A stretch of 32,000 nucleotides of DNA, taken from Candidatus Saccharimonadota bacterium (GTDB lineage Bacteria > Patescibacteriota > Saccharimonadia > Saccharimonadales > Saccharimonadaceae). Location: NCBI RefSeq assembly GCF_025273655.1, contig NZ_CP045921.1:120001-152000 (forward strand). The letters are read 5' to 3'. Every line of letters begins with the position of its first letter. The stretch's first letter is position 1. Under the pieces are notes generated by a model. It made no database searches. It was given only the letters and a program-made list of their open reading frames with translations, and was not told the origin of the DNA. This document shows, piece by piece, positions 2,769-20,986 of the stretch. The position numbers were made by a program, and so were the translations under genes.

Positions 2769-3683
2769 GTGAAGCGAATTTTTATCAGTAGTGTTGTAGC
2801 GATAATACTTGCACTGGCGAGTGTTTCCCAGGTAGCATTTGCAGCAGATGCCCAGCAAGTCGCTCCTGCGACTCCAGATGAGAGCATCACACTCTCGCCG
2901 GTGAGTACTCGTTTTGCGATTGATGCCGGTCAGCAGCGAGCTGGTGAGATGACAATCGTCAATGATGGCAAATCCGACTATGACTTTATCGTCTACGCGC
3001 GGCCGTATTGGGTGGCTAACGACTCATATGATCCGGTGTTTACAAAAGGCTCCAAGCAAAGTGATGCATACCAGTGGGTACGCTTGCCGCAGACGAAGTT
3101 CCACGCCAAATCCGGTGAGACGGTCAAAGTACCCTATACTATCGATGTGCCGGCTACTGCTGCGCCCGGCGGTCATTACGGTGTTATATTTGCCGAGACT
3201 CAGCCCTCCAACACTGGCGAGCAGGGCAATTCTGTGGAGCGCAAAAAACGTGTTGGCATGATCATTTATGCCTCGGTCAACGGGCAAACGATCAACAAGG
3301 GTGAGATTGTCGGTAATCAAGTACAGTTTTGGCAGACACAACCGCCAATGAAGGCGACGGCTACTGCGCGCAATGAAGGTAATGTCGACTTTGTAGACAA
3401 AGTGACATTTGCCGTCAAAGACATGTTTGGCAATCCAAAGTATGTTATCACTAAAGAATACCCAGTACTGCCCCAAACGACACGTAGTATCGGGCTTGAA
3501 TGGCCACAGTCGCCATGGTTTGGCCTGTTTAAAGTAGAGATTCAGCAGCAATTCCTCGACAAAGAACTAACATCGACGCATTATGTACTGATGATGCCGC
3601 GTCTTCTACCGGTCTTGCTGATAGCGCTCCTTGTGATAGGAGGTGGTGTTGCGCTCCTTCACCGCAAAAAACGCAAGGCGTAG
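2769..3683 (+). CDS. Signal-peptide protein with beta-sandwich ectodomain and C-terminal TM anchor (DUF916/DUF3324-like WxL-interacting-protein architecture)
   Basis: 304 aa. Signal peptide ...SQVAFA. Segments ITLSPV..F.I.AGQ...G.MTIVNDG and GGHYGVIFAE. C-terminal hydrophobic helix LLPVLLIALLVIGGGVALL followed by HRKKRKA. GTG start after CAGGAGA. Confidence 0.7.
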   Translation: MKRIFISSVVAIILALASVSQVAFAADAQQVAPATPDESITLSPVSTRFAIDAGQQRAGEMTIVNDGKSDYDFIVYARPYWVANDSYDPVFTKGSKQSDAYQWVRLPQTKFHAKSGETVKVPYTIDVPATAAPGGHYGVIFAETQPSNTGEQGNSVERKKRVGMIIYASVNGQTINKGEIVGNQVQFWQTQPPMKATATARNEGNVDFVDKVTFAVKDMFGNPKYVITKEYPVLPQTTRSIGLEWPQSPWFGLFKVEIQQQFLDKELTSTHYVLMMPRLLPVLLIALLVIGGGVALLHRKKRKA

Positions 3684-4485
3684 CTTCGCGTATCTCACGC
3701 TACTGGCGGTCATTCTGACGAGTCAGGCGGCGCCAGCATGGGCGCAGTCGAGTAGCGTCTATGCGACACTTTGTGGCACCACGTCACATATCACGATCGC
3801 TCAGCCTGCAAGCGACAGTACGGTTACGGCTGCTCAGGTGACCGTCAGTGGTACGGTGGCACAGGCAAATCAGATCGAAGTGTATATCGACGATGAGTTT
3901 GATAGCACGATACCACTAACTGTTGGACAAACGACTTATAGCGGTAGCGTGCAACTACCAAATGGCACGCATACACTTCGCGTGGAAGCGATTAATAGCT
4001 GTAGTGGTCAAAACGGCGAGGCGACGAGTGTCGTGACATATACGATACCTCCGGCTCAGGCGTCTTCTGGTACTGCGGCGGCGACTGGGGTAGCTCCGGC
4101 TCAAGGCGGTGCGGTGACTATCGGCCCAGCTCCAACTGTATCGCAGGGTGTTGGGGGGGCTCCCCGGCAGGAGGCGGCGATGCCGCTCGGATTGCCACCA
4201 CTTCTGGGGCGCCCACTCGAACAGGCGCTCGATTGGCTCAATATCGCACCCCACGATCAACAAAGCGGCGCAACAGGCTTATCACTTGGACGCGCGATGT
4301 TCGTGGTATTGGGTATGTATTTCCTCGTATTGGGCGCGGCGCCTACATTGGTGCACACCCTGGCTGGACTCGGGGTGGTCACTCGAGTGACACCGCAGTC
4401 CAACAGTGCACGTCGCCAGTATCTCGTGCGATGGGGTGTGCGGGTTGCTGGGCTGCTAGTTTTGTTACTCGCACTGTTTCTGTAG
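3643..4485 (+). CDS. Signal-peptide protein with Ig-like domain, Ala/Pro/Gly linker and C-terminal TM helices
   Basis: 280 aa. Signal peptide ...APAWA/QSS. Ig-like segment ITIAQPASDSTVTAAQVTVSGTV...GTHTLRVEAIN. Two C-terminal hydrophobic helices. The start overlaps the previous gene by 41 nt. AGGAGG at 3638-3643 suggests the real start may be TTG 3649. Confidence 0.7.
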   Translation: MVLRSFTAKNARRSFAYLTLLAVILTSQAAPAWAQSSSVYATLCGTTSHITIAQPASDSTVTAAQVTVSGTVAQANQIEVYIDDEFDSTIPLTVGQTTYSGSVQLPNGTHTLRVEAINSCSGQNGEATSVVTYTIPPAQASSGTAAATGVAPAQGGAVTIGPAPTVSQGVGGAPRQEAAMPLGLPPLLGRPLEQALDWLNIAPHDQQSGATGLSLGRAMFVVLGMYFLVLGAAPTLVHTLAGLGVVTRVTPQSNSARRQYLVRWGVRVAGLLVLLLALFL

Positions 4486-6629: not shown

Positions 6630-7826
6630 CTATTGCCAGACGCGCACGTAATCGACATACATGGCCGTGCCGCTTGGAACGGTGTAGCCTTTTTTGAGGG
6701 CGAGGTTGAAAATGATGTACTGTGAGATACTCGTGATATTGGCGGCGTTGGTGTAGCTTGGGCCGGGCTGGCCATCTAGGTACACCTGGATCTTATTAGC
6801 CGTCCACAACATGCCGTAGGTGTGGAAATCTTGGGTATAATCGGTGCCGCTATTACCGTAAACTGTGAGGCCAGACTGCTGGTGATTAGACGAGGTACCG
6901 TAGTGGTAGTTGAAGCTTGGGCGTGTCTGACTACTCAAGCCAAACTCAAAGATGTCGATCTCTGGTGGCCAGGTCGAATCAACTGGGGCGGGGAGCGTCC
7001 AAAAGGCGGGCCAGACGCCAGTGTTGCCAGGGACTTTGATACGCGCTTCGATGTAGCCGTATTTGTAGCTCCAGCTGCGACCGTTTTGTACCATACCGGA
7101 GCTGTAGGGGTAGCCGTTGGTGGCGCCTTGGTTGAGCGTAAGTACGAGGCTGCCGTTTTGCACCTTTGGATTATTCGCGACATAGTACGCGTCTTCGATT
7201 GAGGCATTGTACGGGTCTCCGTAGCTATAGCTCGGGCCTCGCTGAGTAGCCCACTGCGACGCGAGACTGCTGCCGTCGAACTCGTCGCGCATGATTAGAC
7301 TCCAGCTACCGCCGATGCCTACGGGAAGTGGTAGGCAGTTGGGATAGATACCGCTGTAGCCACTCGCACAGGCGGGGGTTACCGGTGTGTCGGGTGAGGG
7401 TGTACTTGGTGCCACGCCGCCGTTACTGGAGTTACCCGAAGAGGCCGCGGGGGATTTCAACGAGGTGCCTGTTATGACTGATGAGCCTGCTGTGCCGCCA
7501 GGAGCACTGGAGGCAGGGGATGTGTTGTCGGTTGAACCGCTCGCTGTAGCCGAGGTACCAGTCGTAGTCGTGGGACCGGTGCTGCTGCTGATGCTCTGGG
7601 GCGAGGTGGGCGTGTCTGCTGGTATGGTGCCTGTCGAGCCATCATGTACTTCTCTCTCGGTAGCCGCTTCGAAATGCGCCCGAGCTATCAGTGCTCCGCT
7701 GATAATCGTGCTGCTCATCCCGAGTGTGAGTAATACGAGGACGGCGCGCTGATGCGCTCGTACAAACAAGATGCCCGTGTGGCGGATCGTAGCTATCTGG
7801 GGGCTATTGGGGTGAAAAAGGTGCAT
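6630..7826 (-). CDS. Membrane-anchored glycoside hydrolase family 16 (beta-glucanase/laminarinase-like)
   Basis: 398 aa. N-terminal TM helix AVLVLLTLGMSSTIISGALIA and a Ser/Thr/Pro-rich linker. GH16 signatures GYIEARIKVPGNTGVWPAFWTLP and catalytic EIDIFE. Confidence 0.85.
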   Translation of the reverse strand: MHLFHPNSPQIATIRHTGILFVRAHQRAVLVLLTLGMSSTIISGALIARAHFEAATEREVHDGSTGTIPADTPTSPQSISSSTGPTTTTGTSATASGSTDNTSPASSAPGGTAGSSVITGTSLKSPAASSGNSSNGGVAPSTPSPDTPVTPACASGYSGIYPNCLPLPVGIGGSWSLIMRDEFDGSSLASQWATQRGPSYSYGDPYNASIEDAYYVANNPKVQNGSLVLTLNQGATNGYPYSSGMVQNGRSWSYKYGYIEARIKVPGNTGVWPAFWTLPAPVDSTWPPEIDIFEFGLSSQTRPSFNYHYGTSSNHQQSGLTVYGNSGTDYTQDFHTYGMLWTANKIQVYLDGQPGPSYTNAANITSISQYIIFNLALKKGYTVPSGTAMYVDYVRVWQ

Positions 7827-12045: not shown

Positions 12046-12312
12046 ATGATTACTAAAGAGAACAAGCAGAAAGCGATTGCTTTGACTCAGGTCAGCAAGA
12101 ACGATGTCGGCAGCCCGCAGGCGCAGGTATCTATCTTGACGGCTCGTATCAAAGAAGTTACAGAGCATCTTAAAGCCAACAAGCATGACTTTATGGCTCG
12201 TCGCGGCTTGGTGCAGATGGTAGGACGCCGCAAGCGTCTCCTCAAATACCTTGAGCGTACTGACTTCGATGCCTACAAGGCAACCGTTTCGAAACTTGGA
12301 CTACGCAAATAG
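12046..12312 (+). CDS. rpsO: 30S ribosomal protein S15
   Basis: 88 aa. GSPQAQVSILTARI..L..HLK.NKHD..RRGL..MVGRRKRLLKYL is the S15 signature. Confidence 0.95.
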   Translation: MITKENKQKAIALTQVSKNDVGSPQAQVSILTARIKEVTEHLKANKHDFMARRGLVQMVGRRKRLLKYLERTDFDAYKATVSKLGLRK

Positions 12313-12320
12313 TGCGAGTT

Positions 12321-12360
12321 CAAACAAAAAAGTCCCGCCAAGTCGGGACATTTTTGTTTG
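12321..12360 (+). terminator. Rho-independent terminator after rpsO
   Basis: caaacaaaaa-a-gtcccg-ccaagt-cgggac-a-tttttgtttg. GC stem extended by A/T arms, with a T-run following. Confidence 0.8.
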
Positions 12361-12380
12361 ACGTACCTGCTTGGTGAGTC

Positions 12381-12386
12381 TATACT
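12381..12386 (+). promoter_or_regulatory. TATACT -10 box, 9 nt upstream of the pilin ATG
   Basis: gagtcTATACTaaagcctatATG. No SD. Confidence 0.35.
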
Positions 12387-12395
12387 AAAGCCTAT

Positions 12396-13172
12396 ATGAA
12401 GAGCAGGGGTGGATTCACGATTGTTGAGCTGCTTATCGTCGTAGTGGTGATGGGTATTCTCGCATCTATCACGATTGTCGCGTATAACGGGATCCAAGAC
12501 CGGGCTAAAAAAGCTTCCATATCTTTTGCTCTCGTGCAGTATAGTAAAAAAATTGTGACGTATCGCGCCCCGAATGGCACCGAAGAGTATCCACCCAACA
12601 AAGAAGCCGCGGGCGTGCAAGATGCAAACGGTATACAGTATCAGTACATCTCTACTTCTGCAAGCGACTACTGCTTGATGGCAACGAGCGGCTCATTGAA
12701 TTATATTATTTCAAGCACAAACCCGACAGTTCAGGCAGGAACATGTACGGGGTATAATATGCTCGTTTGGGATGAATCATCAAGTAGCGTTCCCATAACA
12801 AGCGGTGTGGCGGATACAAGTACCTATCGTAGTGCCCCAGCTTCAGTACGTATTGCGCCAAACATGACAGGTCGCATGTTGAGTGGTAGCCCCTATAGTG
12901 GCGACGTGGGTCAGACATATACTGTATCGTTATGGGTTAAAAGTGACACAAGCTGGAACGGCACGAATGACAATTCAAAGATACGTTTCGGTAATGGCTC
13001 AAGTGGTACGTTGTTGCAGGCTTGTGGGTATGGGGGCGTGAAGGCCGACTGGACTCAAGTTACATGTAGCTATACGCTTACAACGGGCAATACAAGTGTT
13101 GGTATTAGTGTTGGCAACAGCGGCACCATCGGCAACATCTGGATAGATGATATCTCTGTGTCTCGTACGTAA
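12396..13172 (+). CDS. Type IV pilin-like protein with C-terminal CBM4/9-like (jelly-roll lectin) domain
   Basis: 258 aa. Class III signal peptide MKSRGG/FTIVELLIVVVVMGILASI (Gly-1, Phe+1, Glu+5). The C-terminal half has GQTYTVSLWVKSD...DWTQV...NIWIDDISV, typical of CBM_4_9-type modules. Confidence 0.85.
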   Translation: MKSRGGFTIVELLIVVVVMGILASITIVAYNGIQDRAKKASISFALVQYSKKIVTYRAPNGTEEYPPNKEAAGVQDANGIQYQYISTSASDYCLMATSGSLNYIISSTNPTVQAGTCTGYNMLVWDESSSSVPITSGVADTSTYRSAPASVRIAPNMTGRMLSGSPYSGDVGQTYTVSLWVKSDTSWNGTNDNSKIRFGNGSSGTLLQACGYGGVKADWTQVTCSYTLTTGNTSVGISVGNSGTIGNIWIDDISVSRT

Positions 13173-13219: not shown

Positions 13220-14209
13220 ATGAAGATACCTTTGGCTTTCAAAATAATCCTGAGCAGTCTAGTGACACTTGGTGTCGTGGGTGGTGGCGTGTATGTATAT
13301 AGCTTGTATCACACCGCCGATGCGGCGGTAGCAAGCGTAGCGTCGAGCGGTAAACTCACCGACATACTCAAAGCCGAACCTTTAAATGGCGAAGAGACTG
13401 GGCGAGTAAATATATTGATCGCGGGTAATTCGACTGACGATCCGGGACATAGCGGGGCAGAACTGACCGATTCGCTGATGGTGGCGAGTATCGATGTGAC
13501 TACTAAGAAGATTTCACTGGTAAGTATTCCGCGTGATTTGTGGGTAACGTACGACGGTATGAGTACTAAGATCAATGCGGTGTATTTAAGCGGCGGCATG
13601 GACGGGCTGAAATCCGTAGTACAAGAAGTAACGGGTCTGACGATTAATCACACAGTGCTCATGAATTACGGCGCATTGAAAAATATGATCGACACCGTAG
13701 GTGGTATCGATGTGACAATCGAGAGCGATGATCCACGGGGTATCTATGACCCGATGATTGGCTTCAGTGTCGGCAATGGTGTGCAGCACCTCGACGGTAC
13801 ACAGGCGCTGCTGCTGGCGCGGTCACGCAACGATCCGACGTACGATGGGCGCATAGCTTACGGTTTGCCAAACGGCGACTTCGACCGGCAGGCTTACCAG
13901 CGCAAAATTGCCCAGGCGCTACTGACCAAGATCACGCATAGCACAGCCATCGTGAATCCGACCACATTGGCCAAGCTAGTGCAGAGTCTACAGGGCAATG
14001 TGACGACTGATTTGAGCGTAGGGCAGATCCGTCGATTGTACGATCTCGGTACCTCGTCGACACTCTCGCTCGTATCGATTCGTACCGATGCGACCGGTGG
14101 CTCACTCTTGGCGGATTACACTTCATATGATGGCCAGTCGGCATTGGTACCAGCGGCCGGAGCGGGTGTATACTCTGGTATCCAGGCCTATATCGTGTCA
14201 CAATTATGA
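13220..14209 (+). CDS. LytR-CpsA-Psr (LCP) family cell-wall glycopolymer transferase
   Basis: 329 aa. N-terminal TM anchor. LCP core VNILIAGNSTDD...LTDSLMVASID...ISLVSIPRDLWV...KINAVY. Confidence 0.9.
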   Translation: MKIPLAFKIILSSLVTLGVVGGGVYVYSLYHTADAAVASVASSGKLTDILKAEPLNGEETGRVNILIAGNSTDDPGHSGAELTDSLMVASIDVTTKKISLVSIPRDLWVTYDGMSTKINAVYLSGGMDGLKSVVQEVTGLTINHTVLMNYGALKNMIDTVGGIDVTIESDDPRGIYDPMIGFSVGNGVQHLDGTQALLLARSRNDPTYDGRIAYGLPNGDFDRQAYQRKIAQALLTKITHSTAIVNPTTLAKLVQSLQGNVTTDLSVGQIRRLYDLGTSSTLSLVSIRTDATGGSLLADYTSYDGQSALVPAAGAGVYSGIQAYIVSQL

Positions 14210-14919
14210 GAGTGAATAGGAATTATCAAGTTCGACGCCGGCGGCCGGTAGCTACAACTCCACCGAAGCGTGTCTGGAGTCGGCGAAAACTCAGCCTACT
14301 AGTCGCTACATTGGTAGTAGGTGGTGTCGTGTGGCAGCTGGCGGCTCATCGTGATACGGCACCGGCTGTAGAGTCGACCCAGCAAGCGGTGCTGAGTTCG
14401 ACGCGAACGGATTTTCCAGTGATCGAGACGACGGGGTTTAGCGATACGCAGAAACGCGTATTGGCACTAGCGCAACAAGAATACCAGAAAAACCCGATTA
14501 ACTATGACAAGACAGTGATGAAATACACCGAAGGTTTTGAGGAGTCGTGGTGCGGTGATTTCATAAGCTGGGTATTTAACCAAGCAGGCACGCCGTTTGT
14601 GCATCCCGACACCAAATACTGGCGTATTCCTGGCGTACAGACACTCATGACGTATTACCAACAAGAGGGCGCGTATCATGAAATTGGCGATGGCTACAAA
14701 CCACAGATGGGTGATGTGGCATTTTATTTCGGTGAGACACCAGACGGTGGCAGCTCGGAGCATGTGGCCATGGTGCTCGAAGTGCGCGGTGATACGATAG
14801 TGACAATTGGCGGCAACGAGGGTGATGATGGTATACTGCGCGTGCGTTACGATAAGCTAGCGGCGGGCACCAAAGGCCTAGTGGCTATTGGCGCTTCGGG
14901 TATTGGTGTGAAATCCTGA
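14206..14919 (+). CDS. Membrane-anchored CHAP-domain peptidoglycan hydrolase/amidase
   Basis: 237 aa. TM anchor LSLLVATLVVGGVVW. CHAP Cys region WCGDFISWVF and His region SEHVAMV...GGNEGD. ATGA overlap with the LCP stop. Confidence 0.8.
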   Translation: MRVNRNYQVRRRRPVATTPPKRVWSRRKLSLLVATLVVGGVVWQLAAHRDTAPAVESTQQAVLSSTRTDFPVIETTGFSDTQKRVLALAQQEYQKNPINYDKTVMKYTEGFEESWCGDFISWVFNQAGTPFVHPDTKYWRIPGVQTLMTYYQQEGAYHEIGDGYKPQMGDVAFYFGETPDGGSSEHVAMVLEVRGDTIVTIGGNEGDDGILRVRYDKLAAGTKGLVAIGASGIGVKS

Positions 14920-18874: not shown

Positions 18875-20986
18875 ATGTCTACTATCAATCCAAATGGCAA
18901 AGAAATTATCTCTGTCAGTACTGAGCTGGCCGGCAAGACGCTGACACTCGAAGTCAACCGCGTCGGGTTCCGCACCACTGCGAGTGTACTTGTAAAATAC
19001 GGTGACACCGTAGTGCTCGGTACGACGCAAATCGGCAGCCGCCCGGTCAAGCTCGATTATTTCCCACTCAGTGTGGATTATGAAGAAAAAATGTATGCAG
19101 CTGGCAAAATTAGTGGCAGCCGCTTCATCAAACGCGAAGGTCGCCCGAGTGACGAAGCCATCCTGATTGGTCGCATTATCGATCGACCGATTCGTCCACT
19201 GTTTCCAAAAGGCTTCCGTGCCGAAGTGCAGGTGGTGGCGAGCGTCCTTAGTATGGACCCAAGCTTCCGCCCAGACATGGTGGCGATGATCGCTGCGAGC
19301 TCAGCTCTCTCTATCAGCGGCGCACCGTTTGACGGCCCAGTGGCTGGTCTGCGCGTGGGTCGCGTCAATGGTGAGTTCAAAGCATTCCTGAGTCCGGAAG
19401 AACGCGAGCAGAGCGACCTCGACCTCGTGGTAGCTGGCATCGAAAGCGGTGTCGTGATGGTAGAGGCAGGTGCTGACCAAGTTGACGAGGAAGTCGTGAT
19501 CGACGCGATCGCGTGGGCTCACGAAGCTATGCAGCCGGCGATTGCCCTGCAGAAAGAATTGGCCGCCAAGGTTGCCAAAGAGGCCATGGAGTATGAACTC
19601 GTGCTGCCAAACGAAGCTATCCAGACAGAGGTAGACGAGTGGACTCACGAGAAGCTTGGTACCAAACTCCACCGTCCATACCCGGAGCGCAACGAAATGG
19701 TCAACGAACTGCGTTGGAGCTTCCACGAAGAGATGACTACCAAGCACGGCGACGAGTATGAAGCACTGCACGACGAATACGACGAAGCGTTCACAATGTC
19801 GCTCCACAAAGACGTGCGCCGCGGTATTGTAGAATCACAGACGCGTCCAGACGGACGCAAGCTCGACGAGATTCGCCCACTCAGTAGCGAAGTGGGTATA
19901 TTGCCACGCACACACGGTTCAAGCATCTTCACCCGTGGTGTCACGCAGGGCATGAACATTGTCACGCTGGCGCCACTGAGCTACGCGCAAATCGTCGACA
20001 CGATGGAAGTGAGCGACGGCGAACGTCGCTACATGCACCACTACAATGCCCCTGGCTACACGGTTGGTGAAGTGCGTCGCCTTGGTAGTCCAGGCCGTCG
20101 CGAAATTGGCCATGGCTACTTGGCGGAGCGTGCTGTACTGCCAGTCCTGCCGACTGAGGAAGAGTTTCCATATGCTATCCGCAGTGTGACAGAAATAATG
20201 AGCCAAAATGGTTCAACATCGATGGCCGCCACCTGCTCGAGCGTGTTAGCGCTCATGGATGCTGGCGTGCCAATCAAGGCGCCGGTGTCCGGTATCGCCA
20301 TGGGATTGATGATGGACGGTGAAACACCGTACGTGCTGAGTGACATCGCCGATGCCGAAGACTTCGCGGGTGATATGGATTTCAAGGTAACAGGTACTGC
20401 CAAGGGCATTACCGCCGTGCAGATGGACATGAAGTTGCATGGACTGCCGGTAGAAGTATTAGCGCAGGCTATTCGCACCTCCACACCAGGTCGCGCACAT
20501 ATCCTCGAGCACATGCTCACGACACTGGCGGCACCTAAGCCAACACTGAGCCCATATGCACCGCGTATTGAGAAGATTAAGATCAACCCAGATAAGATCG
20601 GTGCGGTGATAGGCAAGGGCGGTGAAGTGATCAACAAGATTACCGCCGAGACCGGTGCCATGATCGATATCAAAGAGGACGGCTTAATCACTGTAGCTGC
20701 TGCTGATACCAAGAACATTGAAAAGGCACTCGACTGGATCCGTAGTCTTACCGAGGAACCAGAAGTGGGTCGTATCTACGAAGGCAAGGTTGTGACAATC
20801 AAAGACTTCGGCGCATTTGTGAACATCCTGCCTGGTATTGATGGCATGGTACACATCTCGCAGCTCAGTGATAGTAGAGTCGAAAATGTGACGGATGTAC
20901 TAAGCGAAGGTCAGATAGTGAAGGTGAAGCTGACTGGTATCGATGAGCGCGGACGCTTGAGTCTTTCGGTTAAGGACGCAGAGTAA
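18875..20986 (+). CDS. pnp: Polyribonucleotide nucleotidyltransferase (PNPase)
   Basis: 703 aa. Two RNase PH-like domains, a KH region (IGAVIGKGGEVINKI) and an S1 domain (GKVVTIKDFGAFVNILPGIDGMVHISQL). SD AAGGGAG. Confidence 0.97.
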   Translation: MSTINPNGKEIISVSTELAGKTLTLEVNRVGFRTTASVLVKYGDTVVLGTTQIGSRPVKLDYFPLSVDYEEKMYAAGKISGSRFIKREGRPSDEAILIGRIIDRPIRPLFPKGFRAEVQVVASVLSMDPSFRPDMVAMIAASSALSISGAPFDGPVAGLRVGRVNGEFKAFLSPEEREQSDLDLVVAGIESGVVMVEAGADQVDEEVVIDAIAWAHEAMQPAIALQKELAAKVAKEAMEYELVLPNEAIQTEVDEWTHEKLGTKLHRPYPERNEMVNELRWSFHEEMTTKHGDEYEALHDEYDEAFTMSLHKDVRRGIVESQTRPDGRKLDEIRPLSSEVGILPRTHGSSIFTRGVTQGMNIVTLAPLSYAQIVDTMEVSDGERRYMHHYNAPGYTVGEVRRLGSPGRREIGHGYLAERAVLPVLPTEEEFPYAIRSVTEIMSQNGSTSMAATCSSVLALMDAGVPIKAPVSGIAMGLMMDGETPYVLSDIADAEDFAGDMDFKVTGTAKGITAVQMDMKLHGLPVEVLAQAIRTSTPGRAHILEHMLTTLAAPKPTLSPYAPRIEKIKINPDKIGAVIGKGGEVINKITAETGAMIDIKEDGLITVAAADTKNIEKALDWIRSLTEEPEVGRIYEGKVVTIKDFGAFVNILPGIDGMVHISQLSDSRVENVTDVLSEGQIVKVKLTGIDERGRLSLSVKDAE

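Follow-up and report, generated by a model that had tools for sequence, protein, structure and literature searches.

Modular pilins, in which a pilin module carries a further functional module, have been described in the literature and include examples with carbohydrate-binding modules (CBMs) and examples from the candidate phyla radiation (CPR) (PMC8179133). In Streptococcus sanguinis, PilC (and likewise PilB) joins a small pilin module with a class III signal peptide to a C-terminal functional module through a short junction (PMC9934059, PMC8179133); the module of PilC is a proven lectin that binds glycans, and the model is one of tip display on the retractile type IV pilus (T4P) of a monoderm (PMC9934059). 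In the Saccharibacterium Nanosynbacter lyticus TM7x, the “lectin-like minor pilins” PilX1 and PilX2 have extra C-terminal domains, β-jelly-roll-like in PilX1 and a β-propeller in PilX2, which are proposed to bind host cell-wall glycans, and the PilX1 jelly roll, like the one described below, is invisible to standard domain searches (PMC11623550). Here we report a protein of this kind encoded in a 32-kb window (the whole stretch of DNA analysed, 32,000 nucleotides) of the genome of Candidatus Mycosynbacter amalyticus (CP045921), an ultrasmall Saccharibacterium that parasitises and lyses Gordonia amarae. The protein is a modular type IV pilin that bears a putative sugar-binding module at its C-terminus, and we lean, with modest confidence, towards viewing it as a minor subunit that acts as a host-envelope-glycan adhesin on a retractile pilus.

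Lectin-bearing pilins are already a known kind of protein, and the M. amalyticus protein works like them. PilC is encoded within the pil locus, whereas the M. amalyticus gene is an orphan beside rpsO, and its module, unlike that of PilC, is a 140-residue jelly roll resembling CBM families 4, 9, 16 and 22 and related to modules of phage tail fibres. PilX1 and PilX2 are encoded in T4P loci and have no predicted prepilin-peptidase signal, in contrast to the textbook signal and orphan gene of the present pilin (PMC11623550); our comparison of PilX1 with this family is by published description. What is new is a conserved pilin family that is unannotated and falls below threshold in domain databases, a module of phage receptor-binding type with a pilin-specific cysteine pair, and the occurrence of both in a cultivable parasite-host pair with an open receptor question.

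The gene occupies positions 12396-13172 on the forward strand and encodes, from an ATG start, 258 residues plus a stop codon. Its product is 100% identical to WP_260763682.1 / QHN42385.1 of Candidatus Mycosynbacter amalyticus, which NCBI labels solely as a [quoted passage not shown]. An initial annotation of this DNA had proposed a type IV pilin fused to a CBM4/9-like lectin domain; the open reading frame (ORF) is exactly as it described, and every motif it quoted is found in the translation, with GQTYTVSLWVKSD at residues 172-184, DWTQVTCSYTL at 218-228 and NIWIDDISV at 247-255. Its remark that the gene stands alone is true within the window, where this ORF has the one prepilin motif and no T4P machinery genes were found among the ORFs. 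No mention of the accession numbers of the pilin was found in the literature searched, nor in the supplement of the preprint on Pam pili considered below.

The N-terminus reads MKSRGG|FTIVELLIVVVVMGILASITIVAYNGIQDRA and passes both relevant profiles, Pfam N_methyl (26.2 bits against a gathering score of 21.2) and TIGR02532 (24.2 bits against a cutoff of 16.3), so that the prepilin start MKSRGG|FTIVELLIV with Glu+5 recognised in the initial annotation stands above curated cutoffs. The leader MKSRGG (12396-12413, +) is a class III signal peptide with a predicted prepilin peptidase cut after Gly6. The hydrophobic N-terminal part of the following helix, FTIVELLIVVVVMGILASITIVAY, has Glu at mature position +5 and is the polymerisation core of type IV filaments; with a basic leader ending in Gly, Glu+5 and a hydrophobic stretch of about 20 residues, the sequence has the features that define a type IV pilin. 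In an alignment of 66 homologs, Gly-1 is kept in 63, Phe+1 in 65 and Glu+5 in 65.

The pilin module as a whole spans residues 7-117. It comprises an α1 helix at residues 7-60 (12414-12575, +), which is matched by phmmer and profile searches to PilE and PilA structures, and a small head at residues 61-117 (12576-12746, +) made of an α-β loop and three strands (80-88, 91-98 and 101-106). These boundaries come from an AlphaFold2 (AF2) model built on the family alignment (mean predicted local distance difference test, pLDDT, 90; predicted template modelling score, pTM, 0.64), in which the helix runs from residue 9 to 55, the strands span 80-106, and the pilin module takes the expected lollipop shape with a predicted pLDDT of 86-95. 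The family profile matches solved pilins at E values of 1e-12 to 1e-9, reaching beyond the helix to about profile position 111, and a weak match to GspG at the N-terminus (32 bits) lies far under its cutoff of 88.85. Two head cysteines, C93 (12672-12674) and C117 (12744-12746), covary perfectly across the 66 homologs (both present in 59, neither in seven, one alone in none), as is expected from a D-region disulfide, and we take them as a putative disulfide of this type closing the head.

Beyond the head, residues 118-258 (12747-13169, +) form a predicted β-jelly-roll that is CBM4/9/16/22-like and of a phage receptor-binding-protein subtype. In the AF2 model the region from about residue 118 to the end appears as an all-β domain of about 140 residues. 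The initial annotation was right to place a separate domain here, and its boundary moves from residue 115 to about 118 in the model. The top Foldseek matches of the model in the PDB were CBM16 (3oeb, 2zex), CBM4 (1gui, 2y6j) and CBM22 (4xuo) structures, with E values of 2e-6 to 7e-6, a probability of 1.00 and target-normalised TM scores of 0.47-0.65; the predicted structure thus superposes on solved CBM4/9/16/22 jelly rolls, with sequence identity to these enzyme-associated CBMs of only 10-17%. Absence of a jelly roll from the predicted structure, which the initial annotation had named as grounds for giving up its proposal, was checked with AF2 and Foldseek, and the jelly roll is present.

The profile evidence is less clear-cut than the modelled fold. 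Pfam CBM_4_9 (PF02018), the search that the initial annotation had suggested, gave 15.7 bits with the whole protein and 17.1 bits with the C-terminal domain (gathering score 25.9). Across the family, PF02018 matches 17 of 66 members at E<0.1 (best E 6.9e-6), homolog P0103 carries a precomputed PF02018 match, and the C-terminal W-x-D-D strand motif aligns with the end of the PF02018 model. The NCBIfam model NF048003 (GTA_spike_fiber) matched residues 18-136 of the C-terminal domain with 22.1 bits and an E value of 1.8e-4 (cutoff 36). Since both scores fall under the curated cutoffs, membership of either family was rejected, and the sub-threshold PF02018 score leads us to place the module in the galactose-binding-domain-like fold superfamily and not in PF02018 itself. 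The original description as a CBM_4_9 or galactose-binding-like jelly roll therefore holds for the fold, as modelled by AF2 and compared by Foldseek, and does not extend to the Pfam family. A catalytic, glucanase-like jelly roll was also considered and rejected, as there is no match to a glycoside hydrolase family and the best structural neighbours are non-catalytic CBMs. The enzyme-associated CBMs of families 4, 9, 16 and 22 (PF02018) share the jelly-roll fold, but are appended to glycoside hydrolases and not to fibres.

On profile similarity and a shared signature, the module stands nearest to those of phage tail fibres and receptor-binding proteins and not to enzyme-linked CBMs. When a profile of the C-terminal domain was compared with PDB sequences, there was one clear match, to residues 200-318 of the Mycobacteriophage Douge central fibre protein gp20 (8zdo_v, E 1e-6); the next were a CBM associated with glycoside hydrolase family 10 (4mgq, E 0.002) and the CBM4 of laminarinase 16A (1gui, E 0.18). 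The N-terminal domain (NTD) of Douge gp20 (PDB 8ZDO/8ZDP; PMC13033339) is the best solved homolog, with 26% identity in Foldseek and the motifs GQxYxVSxW, WTQVT and GxxWxDD, and it has been shown to bind envelope glycans of a mycolata host (PMC13033339). Gp20 differs in being a trimeric phage fibre of 878 residues without the pilin-specific cysteine pair, and specificity is not transferable at 26% identity. Structure matches in BFVD were to minor tail proteins of actinobacteriophages (Gordonia, Tsukamurella and Mycobacterium phages) at 22-27% identity, and the 14 records that matched in a tblastn search of 50,697 phage records were all actinophage minor tail proteins. The PHROG tail families phrog_38009 (E 1.3e-8) and phrog_38533 (E 4.6e-8) match most of the C-terminal domain. 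Together with NF048003 they are weak, consistent profile matches over most of the domain, and they differ from the pilin in describing virion proteins. The NF048003 name presumably refers to the head spikes of gene transfer agents (GTAs).

An exhaustive hmmsearch of 1.84 billion representative proteins with the domain profile detected the module in 581 proteins at E≤1e-3 and in 129 at E≤1e-10. Pilins of about 260 residues account for some 20 of the 581; the others are 1,000-3,600 residues long with one to six copies, and all long carriers examined are phage tail fibre or receptor-binding proteins or are encoded in phage genomes. P0126, for example, is a lambda-J-like protein within a siphovirus tail module, P0140 and P0142 belong to phages whose genomes, 122-247 kb in size, also encode holins and a GH25-LysM endolysin, and P0141 and P0142 are similar to tail fibres of large Bacillus phages; compared with PHROG, six of six long carriers match families of tail fibre, receptor-binding or host-range proteins. 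Identity between the module of the pilin and its closest phage counterparts is 36-42%. Phage copies share with it a signature of G172, W180, G189, N193-S-K-x-R197 (N-S-K-I-R in this pilin, 12972-12986), W219, G246, W249 and D251-D252, and across 104 phage copies these residues are kept in 71-97%. Found in the pilin copies only are C210/C224 (13023-13025, 13065-13067), N121, W125, P166 and K216; within the family alignment of 66 homologs both C210 and C224 are invariant, as are the tryptophans W125, W180, W187, W219 and W249.

Because the BFVD matches were to mycolata phages, all 14 tblastn matches were actinophages and M. amalyticus itself preys on a mycolata, we considered whether the parasite has the module in common with the phages of its own host group in particular. 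In its strong form this idea was rejected: the closest copies (36-42% identity) are in Bacillus-phage-like fibres and in a lambda-like phage with an apparent Gram-negative host, which makes the subfamily generic to phage receptor-binding proteins. In an unrooted neighbour-joining tree of 40 pilin copies and 99 phage copies, the pilin-borne copies split from the phage copies as one clade in 196 of 200 bootstraps. The far greater diversity among phage copies suggests transfer in the direction from phage to pilin, the tree being unrooted. A search of IMG/VR viral contigs found no fused pilin-CBM gene, and only one distant copy of the module. Further copies turned up at the edges of these searches, including a 46%-identical one in a 1,858-residue ORF of Terribacillus aidingensis, probably a prophage tail fibre (L022:20-5596, +), and a 28%-identical one in Paracoccus kondratievae (L023) that may be GTA- or prophage-related. 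One lambda-like siphovirus (JGI 3300027984 Ga0209629_10000069) has four copies of the module in its 3,346-residue J-like protein and encodes, among its tail genes and immediately 5' of the tape-measure gene, a T2SSG/pseudopilin-like protein (PF08334; L007:5395-5871, +).

The pilin belongs to a family of more than 120 clusters of full-length homologs (242-276 residues, 45-90% identity, at least 95% coverage), and the named homologs come from Saccharibacteria or Patescibacteria. Our taxonomic survey, a contig scan with narrow peptide patterns that returned 13 loci, under-samples this distribution. Mean pairwise identity is 88% in α1N, 49% in α1C, 43% in the pilin head, which is the most variable part of the protein, and 56% in the C-terminal domain. 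The appended module is thus under stronger constraint than the head, as expected of a functional module, and its high conservation argues for a widely shared ligand.

The modularity of the protein is illustrated by two adjacent genes in the genome of another lineage (GCA_040384025.1; L003:7060-7998 and L003:8001-8807, both +), whose products share the pilin module with 51% identity over residues 1-126. The likeness ends at a Cys-x-G-H junction, after which the modules are unrelated and only one is the CBM; the other, in a pilin of 313 residues, has no Pfam match. This arrangement indicates that modules are exchanged at the junction that follows the D-region cysteine and implies a carrier-plus-effector logic for the pilin module. 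The same genome encodes a protein of at least 431 residues in which N_methyl is followed by NHL/TEN_NHL β-propeller repeats (L003:15627-16807, +), recalling PilX2 of TM7x. A modular pilin, as defined by Raynaud et al. (2021), has an N-terminal pilin module joined by a short linker to an independently folding module that is not T4P-specific; the two domains of the AF2 model, the presence of the module in hundreds of phage tail proteins and the L003 pair place the M. amalyticus protein among them. In a more distant lineage, a tandem of a 165-residue pilin and two CBM-pilin paralogs (P0063 and P0120) lies among rpsU, yqeY, adk, map and ftsAZ (L005:7497-9656, +), the 165-residue pilin having only its first 40 or so residues in common with the CBM-pilins.

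One full-length homolog comes from an actinobacterium. In Nocardioides cheoyonin KR10-350 (NZ_JBDZDM010000002.1, ~300.1-300.9 kb; L017:3611-4429, +) we found a pilin-CBM protein starting with the motif G|FTLVELLIV and 52% identical across the C-terminal domain. It lies in a trough of 57-65% GC, compared with 73-77% in the flanks, and adjoins a large serine recombinase with Resolvase, Recombinase and Zn-ribbon domains (L017:1224-3104, -). The setting of this copy suggests that an integrative element carried it horizontally between Saccharibacteria and their host phylum, although an assembly chimera is conceivable. We put forward tentatively, as a possibility that we would not call likely, that Saccharibacteria took a host-recognition module from the phage tail-fibre pool onto a retractile pilus and that the fused gene is itself mobile.

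The T4P machinery that the initial annotation expected elsewhere in the genome can be located from a whole-cell proteome of M. amalyticus given in a 2026 preprint, the table of which covers the 40 most abundant proteins of host-free cells. It places a 17.7-kDa “putative pilin” (QHN42429) at rank 12, PilT (QHN42427) at rank 15, PilM (QHN42422) at rank 27 and PilB (QHN42426) at rank 37. QHN42381 (71.6 kDa), at rank 29, matches a 680-residue ORF four genes upstream of the pilin, so that accession order follows gene order; PilM, PilB, PilT and the 17.7-kDa pilin at QHN42422-42429 would then form a T4P locus some 37-44 genes downstream, just outside the window. The present pilin, QHN42385, is absent from the top 40. 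Because it is missing from this list while the 17.7-kDa pilin ranks 12th, and because the modular pilins PilB and PilC of S. sanguinis have a published tip location (PMC8179133, PMC9934059), we favour, by analogy, a minor and probably tip-exposed adhesive subunit incorporated into such a filament. The initial annotation had left open whether the module sits on every subunit or on a minor or tip pilin; the proteome favours the minor pilin, and the former option less so.

Clues to the ligand come from the phage homolog and from host resistance. On a mycobacterial glycan array, Douge gp20 CFP-NTD (165-321), the domain within which the matching residues 200-318 fall, bound α-glucan and arabinofuranose-rich fragments of lipoarabinomannan/arabinomannan (LAM/AM) (PMC13033339). 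Mutations that make Gordonia resistant to the parasite fall in mycolic-acid synthesis and in aftB, the gene that completes the arabinan termini carrying mycolates (PMC11880426). Since the gp20 homolog binds these polymers and one resistance class hits aftB, our best guess, again by analogy, is that the ligand in G. amarae may be a polymer of the arabinan or α-glucan type.

Taken together, these observations are consistent with the following model. Prepilin peptidase would cleave the six-residue leader, and the α1 helix with Glu+5 would insert the subunit into the T4P built by PilB, PilM and PilT. Judging from the predicted fold, the 140-residue lectin module, directly after the head disulfide, would be displayed on the outside of the fibre. 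The module appears to come from the CBM4/9-like subfamily that phages use on tail and central fibres for envelope polysaccharides, and on the pilin it most likely binds a host cell-envelope glycan. The subunit would be a low-abundance, probably tip-exposed component of a filament of the 17.7-kDa major pilin, and retraction driven by PilT would draw the parasite in to the surface of its host. With a strong promoter of its own and a near-leaderless mRNA, both described below, the gene would be expressed independently of the pilus machinery locus.

Upstream of the pilin gene lies rpsO (12046-12312; Pfam Ribosomal_S15), followed by an intrinsic terminator found in a terminator scan (12332-12359, +; hairpin GTCCCG-CCAAGT-CGGGAC plus a T-run), which would leave the pilin gene transcriptionally isolated from rpsO. 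The pilin gene has a sigma-70-type promoter of its own (12358-12386, +; TTGACG-17 nt-TATACT, 10 of 12 matches). The -10 box ends 9 nt 5' of the ATG and a Shine-Dalgarno sequence is lacking, so that the transcript probably has little or no leader. Homologs at L001 (7931-8003), L012-L016 and L018-L020 also have a TATACT/TATAAT-like box 6-11 nt before the ATG and no Shine-Dalgarno sequence, and several have a TTGAC -35 box as well; a leaderless, independently transcribed mRNA, with the transcription start as predicted, thus appears to be a family trait.

Downstream are genes for a LytR-CpsA-Psr (LCP) protein (13220-14209, +) and a CHAP-domain protein (14206-14919, +). The terminator scan predicted no terminator between the pilin gene and LCP-CHAP, and co-transcription is possible. 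The initial annotation had drawn on these cell-wall-modifying neighbours to suggest a cell-wall glycopolymer as target. The order pilin, LCP, CHAP and ABC transporter recurs only in a relative at 74% identity and not in relatives at 62-63% identity or below, whereas the rpsO-proximal position of the pilin gene is kept down to 62%; we therefore rejected a function deduced from the neighbouring LCP and CHAP genes, a neighbourhood not kept past the nearest relative. The rest of the window encodes fpg, holA, truB, rpsO, pnp, RNase J, ftsK, a glycoside hydrolase of family GH16, a PIG-L deacetylase, LCP, CHAP and an ABC-2 transporter. The 680-residue protein matched to QHN42381 (8456-10498, +) has a long Pro/Ala-rich C-terminal half and no Pfam match, and its homolog keeps its place upstream of PIG-L and truB in relatives. 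In bacteria rpsO and pnp are usually adjacent; here pnp (18875-20986) is separated from rpsO by about 6.5 kb containing the pilin, LCP, CHAP and ABC-2 transporter genes, two hypothetical genes and an ASCH-domain gene. The GH16 gene (6630-7826, -) and a marginal Glucodextran_B match (3643-4485, +) may both stand for secreted proteins that act on glycans, in a genome of minimal metabolic capacity.

Several points weigh against a minor, host-directed glycan adhesin. According to the 2026 preprint that gives the proteome, the filaments sheared from M. amalyticus and seen by cryo-electron microscopy (cryo-EM) are Pam pili (PamA and PamB fibres), not T4P. Glu+5, a canonical leader, a near-consensus promoter and an orphan location are all typical of major pilins, and the assignment of a minor role draws on absence from a list limited to the top 40 proteins of host-free cells. 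The resistance mutations mostly affect mycolic acids, which are lipids, not glycans; the ligand is proposed solely from a homolog of 26% identity; and similar glycans were bound by each of the six Douge domains assayed, so that the array may discriminate poorly (PMC13033339). Strong conservation of the C-terminal domain over many environmental Saccharibacteria, the hosts of which presumably differ, is unlike that of fast-evolving host-range determinants and could also mean a generic or self ligand.

Other explanations have to be set beside it. The protein might form a second, thicker type IV filament as its major subunit, with the CBM on every subunit making a multivalent glycan-binding fibre. 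The canonical leader, with Glu+5 kept in 65 of 66 family members, would suit this role, as would the near-consensus promoter and leaderless arrangement kept across the family, the position of an orphan gene near ribosomal-protein genes and the tandem paralogs of another lineage. The module lies C-terminal to the D-region, a place that is surface-exposed in pilus structures, our rough surface-area estimate would allow one 140-residue module per subunit, and TM7x makes two distinct T4P (PMC11623550). The protein is, however, missing from the 40 most abundant proteins, among which the 17.7-kDa pilin stands 12th; cryo-EM of sheared filaments resolved only PamA and PamB fibres, and the characterised modular pilins are minor and tip-located. 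We regard such a fibre as unlikely, though well worth keeping in mind. A glycan-capturing or envelope-working role for a pilin-like surface or pseudopilus protein, its ligand a free or self polysaccharide, seems improbable to us. It would have parallels in the sugar-binding proteins with class III signal peptides of the archaeal “bindosome” or in a pseudopilin of type II secretion system (T2SS) type, and the weak GspG match (32 vs 88.85 bits) and the secreted-type glycan enzymes of the window (GH16 and Glucodextran_B-like) point in the same direction. The gene is followed by LCP, CHAP and an ABC transporter in the closest relatives, and conservation of the module across lineages fits a generic ligand; but the ABC system is of the ABC-2 exporter type and not a sugar importer, the neighbourhood is lost beyond the nearest relative, the closest relatives of the module are phage adsorption devices, and no T2SS or bindosome components were seen.

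The jelly roll might, finally, bind something other than a glycan, such as a host-surface protein, a mycolate lipid or a partner minor pilin in a tip complex. Resistance to the parasite arises mainly through mutations of the mycolic-acid pathway, PF02018 stays under threshold, and the CBM-like fold also occurs in non-lectins, with Stig cyclases and toxin domains among the Foldseek matches. Set against this, glycans are what the closest experimentally characterised sequence homolog binds, and both the shared signature and the top structural neighbours are those of carbohydrate-binding modules; a non-glycan ligand is in our estimate quite improbable.

Host recognition by Saccharibacteria and other CPR episymbionts is an open question, and the literature calls the mechanism of M. 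amalyticus unresolved. A minor, glycan-binding modular pilin would make this gene a specific adhesin candidate, with a separable 140-residue domain, for the grip of the parasite on its host. The link between the family and phage receptor-binding modules helps in annotating CPR genomes and in considering the exchange of modules between phages and parasites, and the sequence relationships suggest that related glycan-binding devices serve both episymbiotic bacteria and phages. If a module was indeed recruited from the tail-fibre pool onto a mobile pilin gene, the pilin would be a cellular, reusable “tail fibre”, with parasites and phages drawing on one exchangeable repertoire of envelope-glycan binders, and the actinobacterial copy in N. 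cheoyonin might act as a decoy or exclusion factor.

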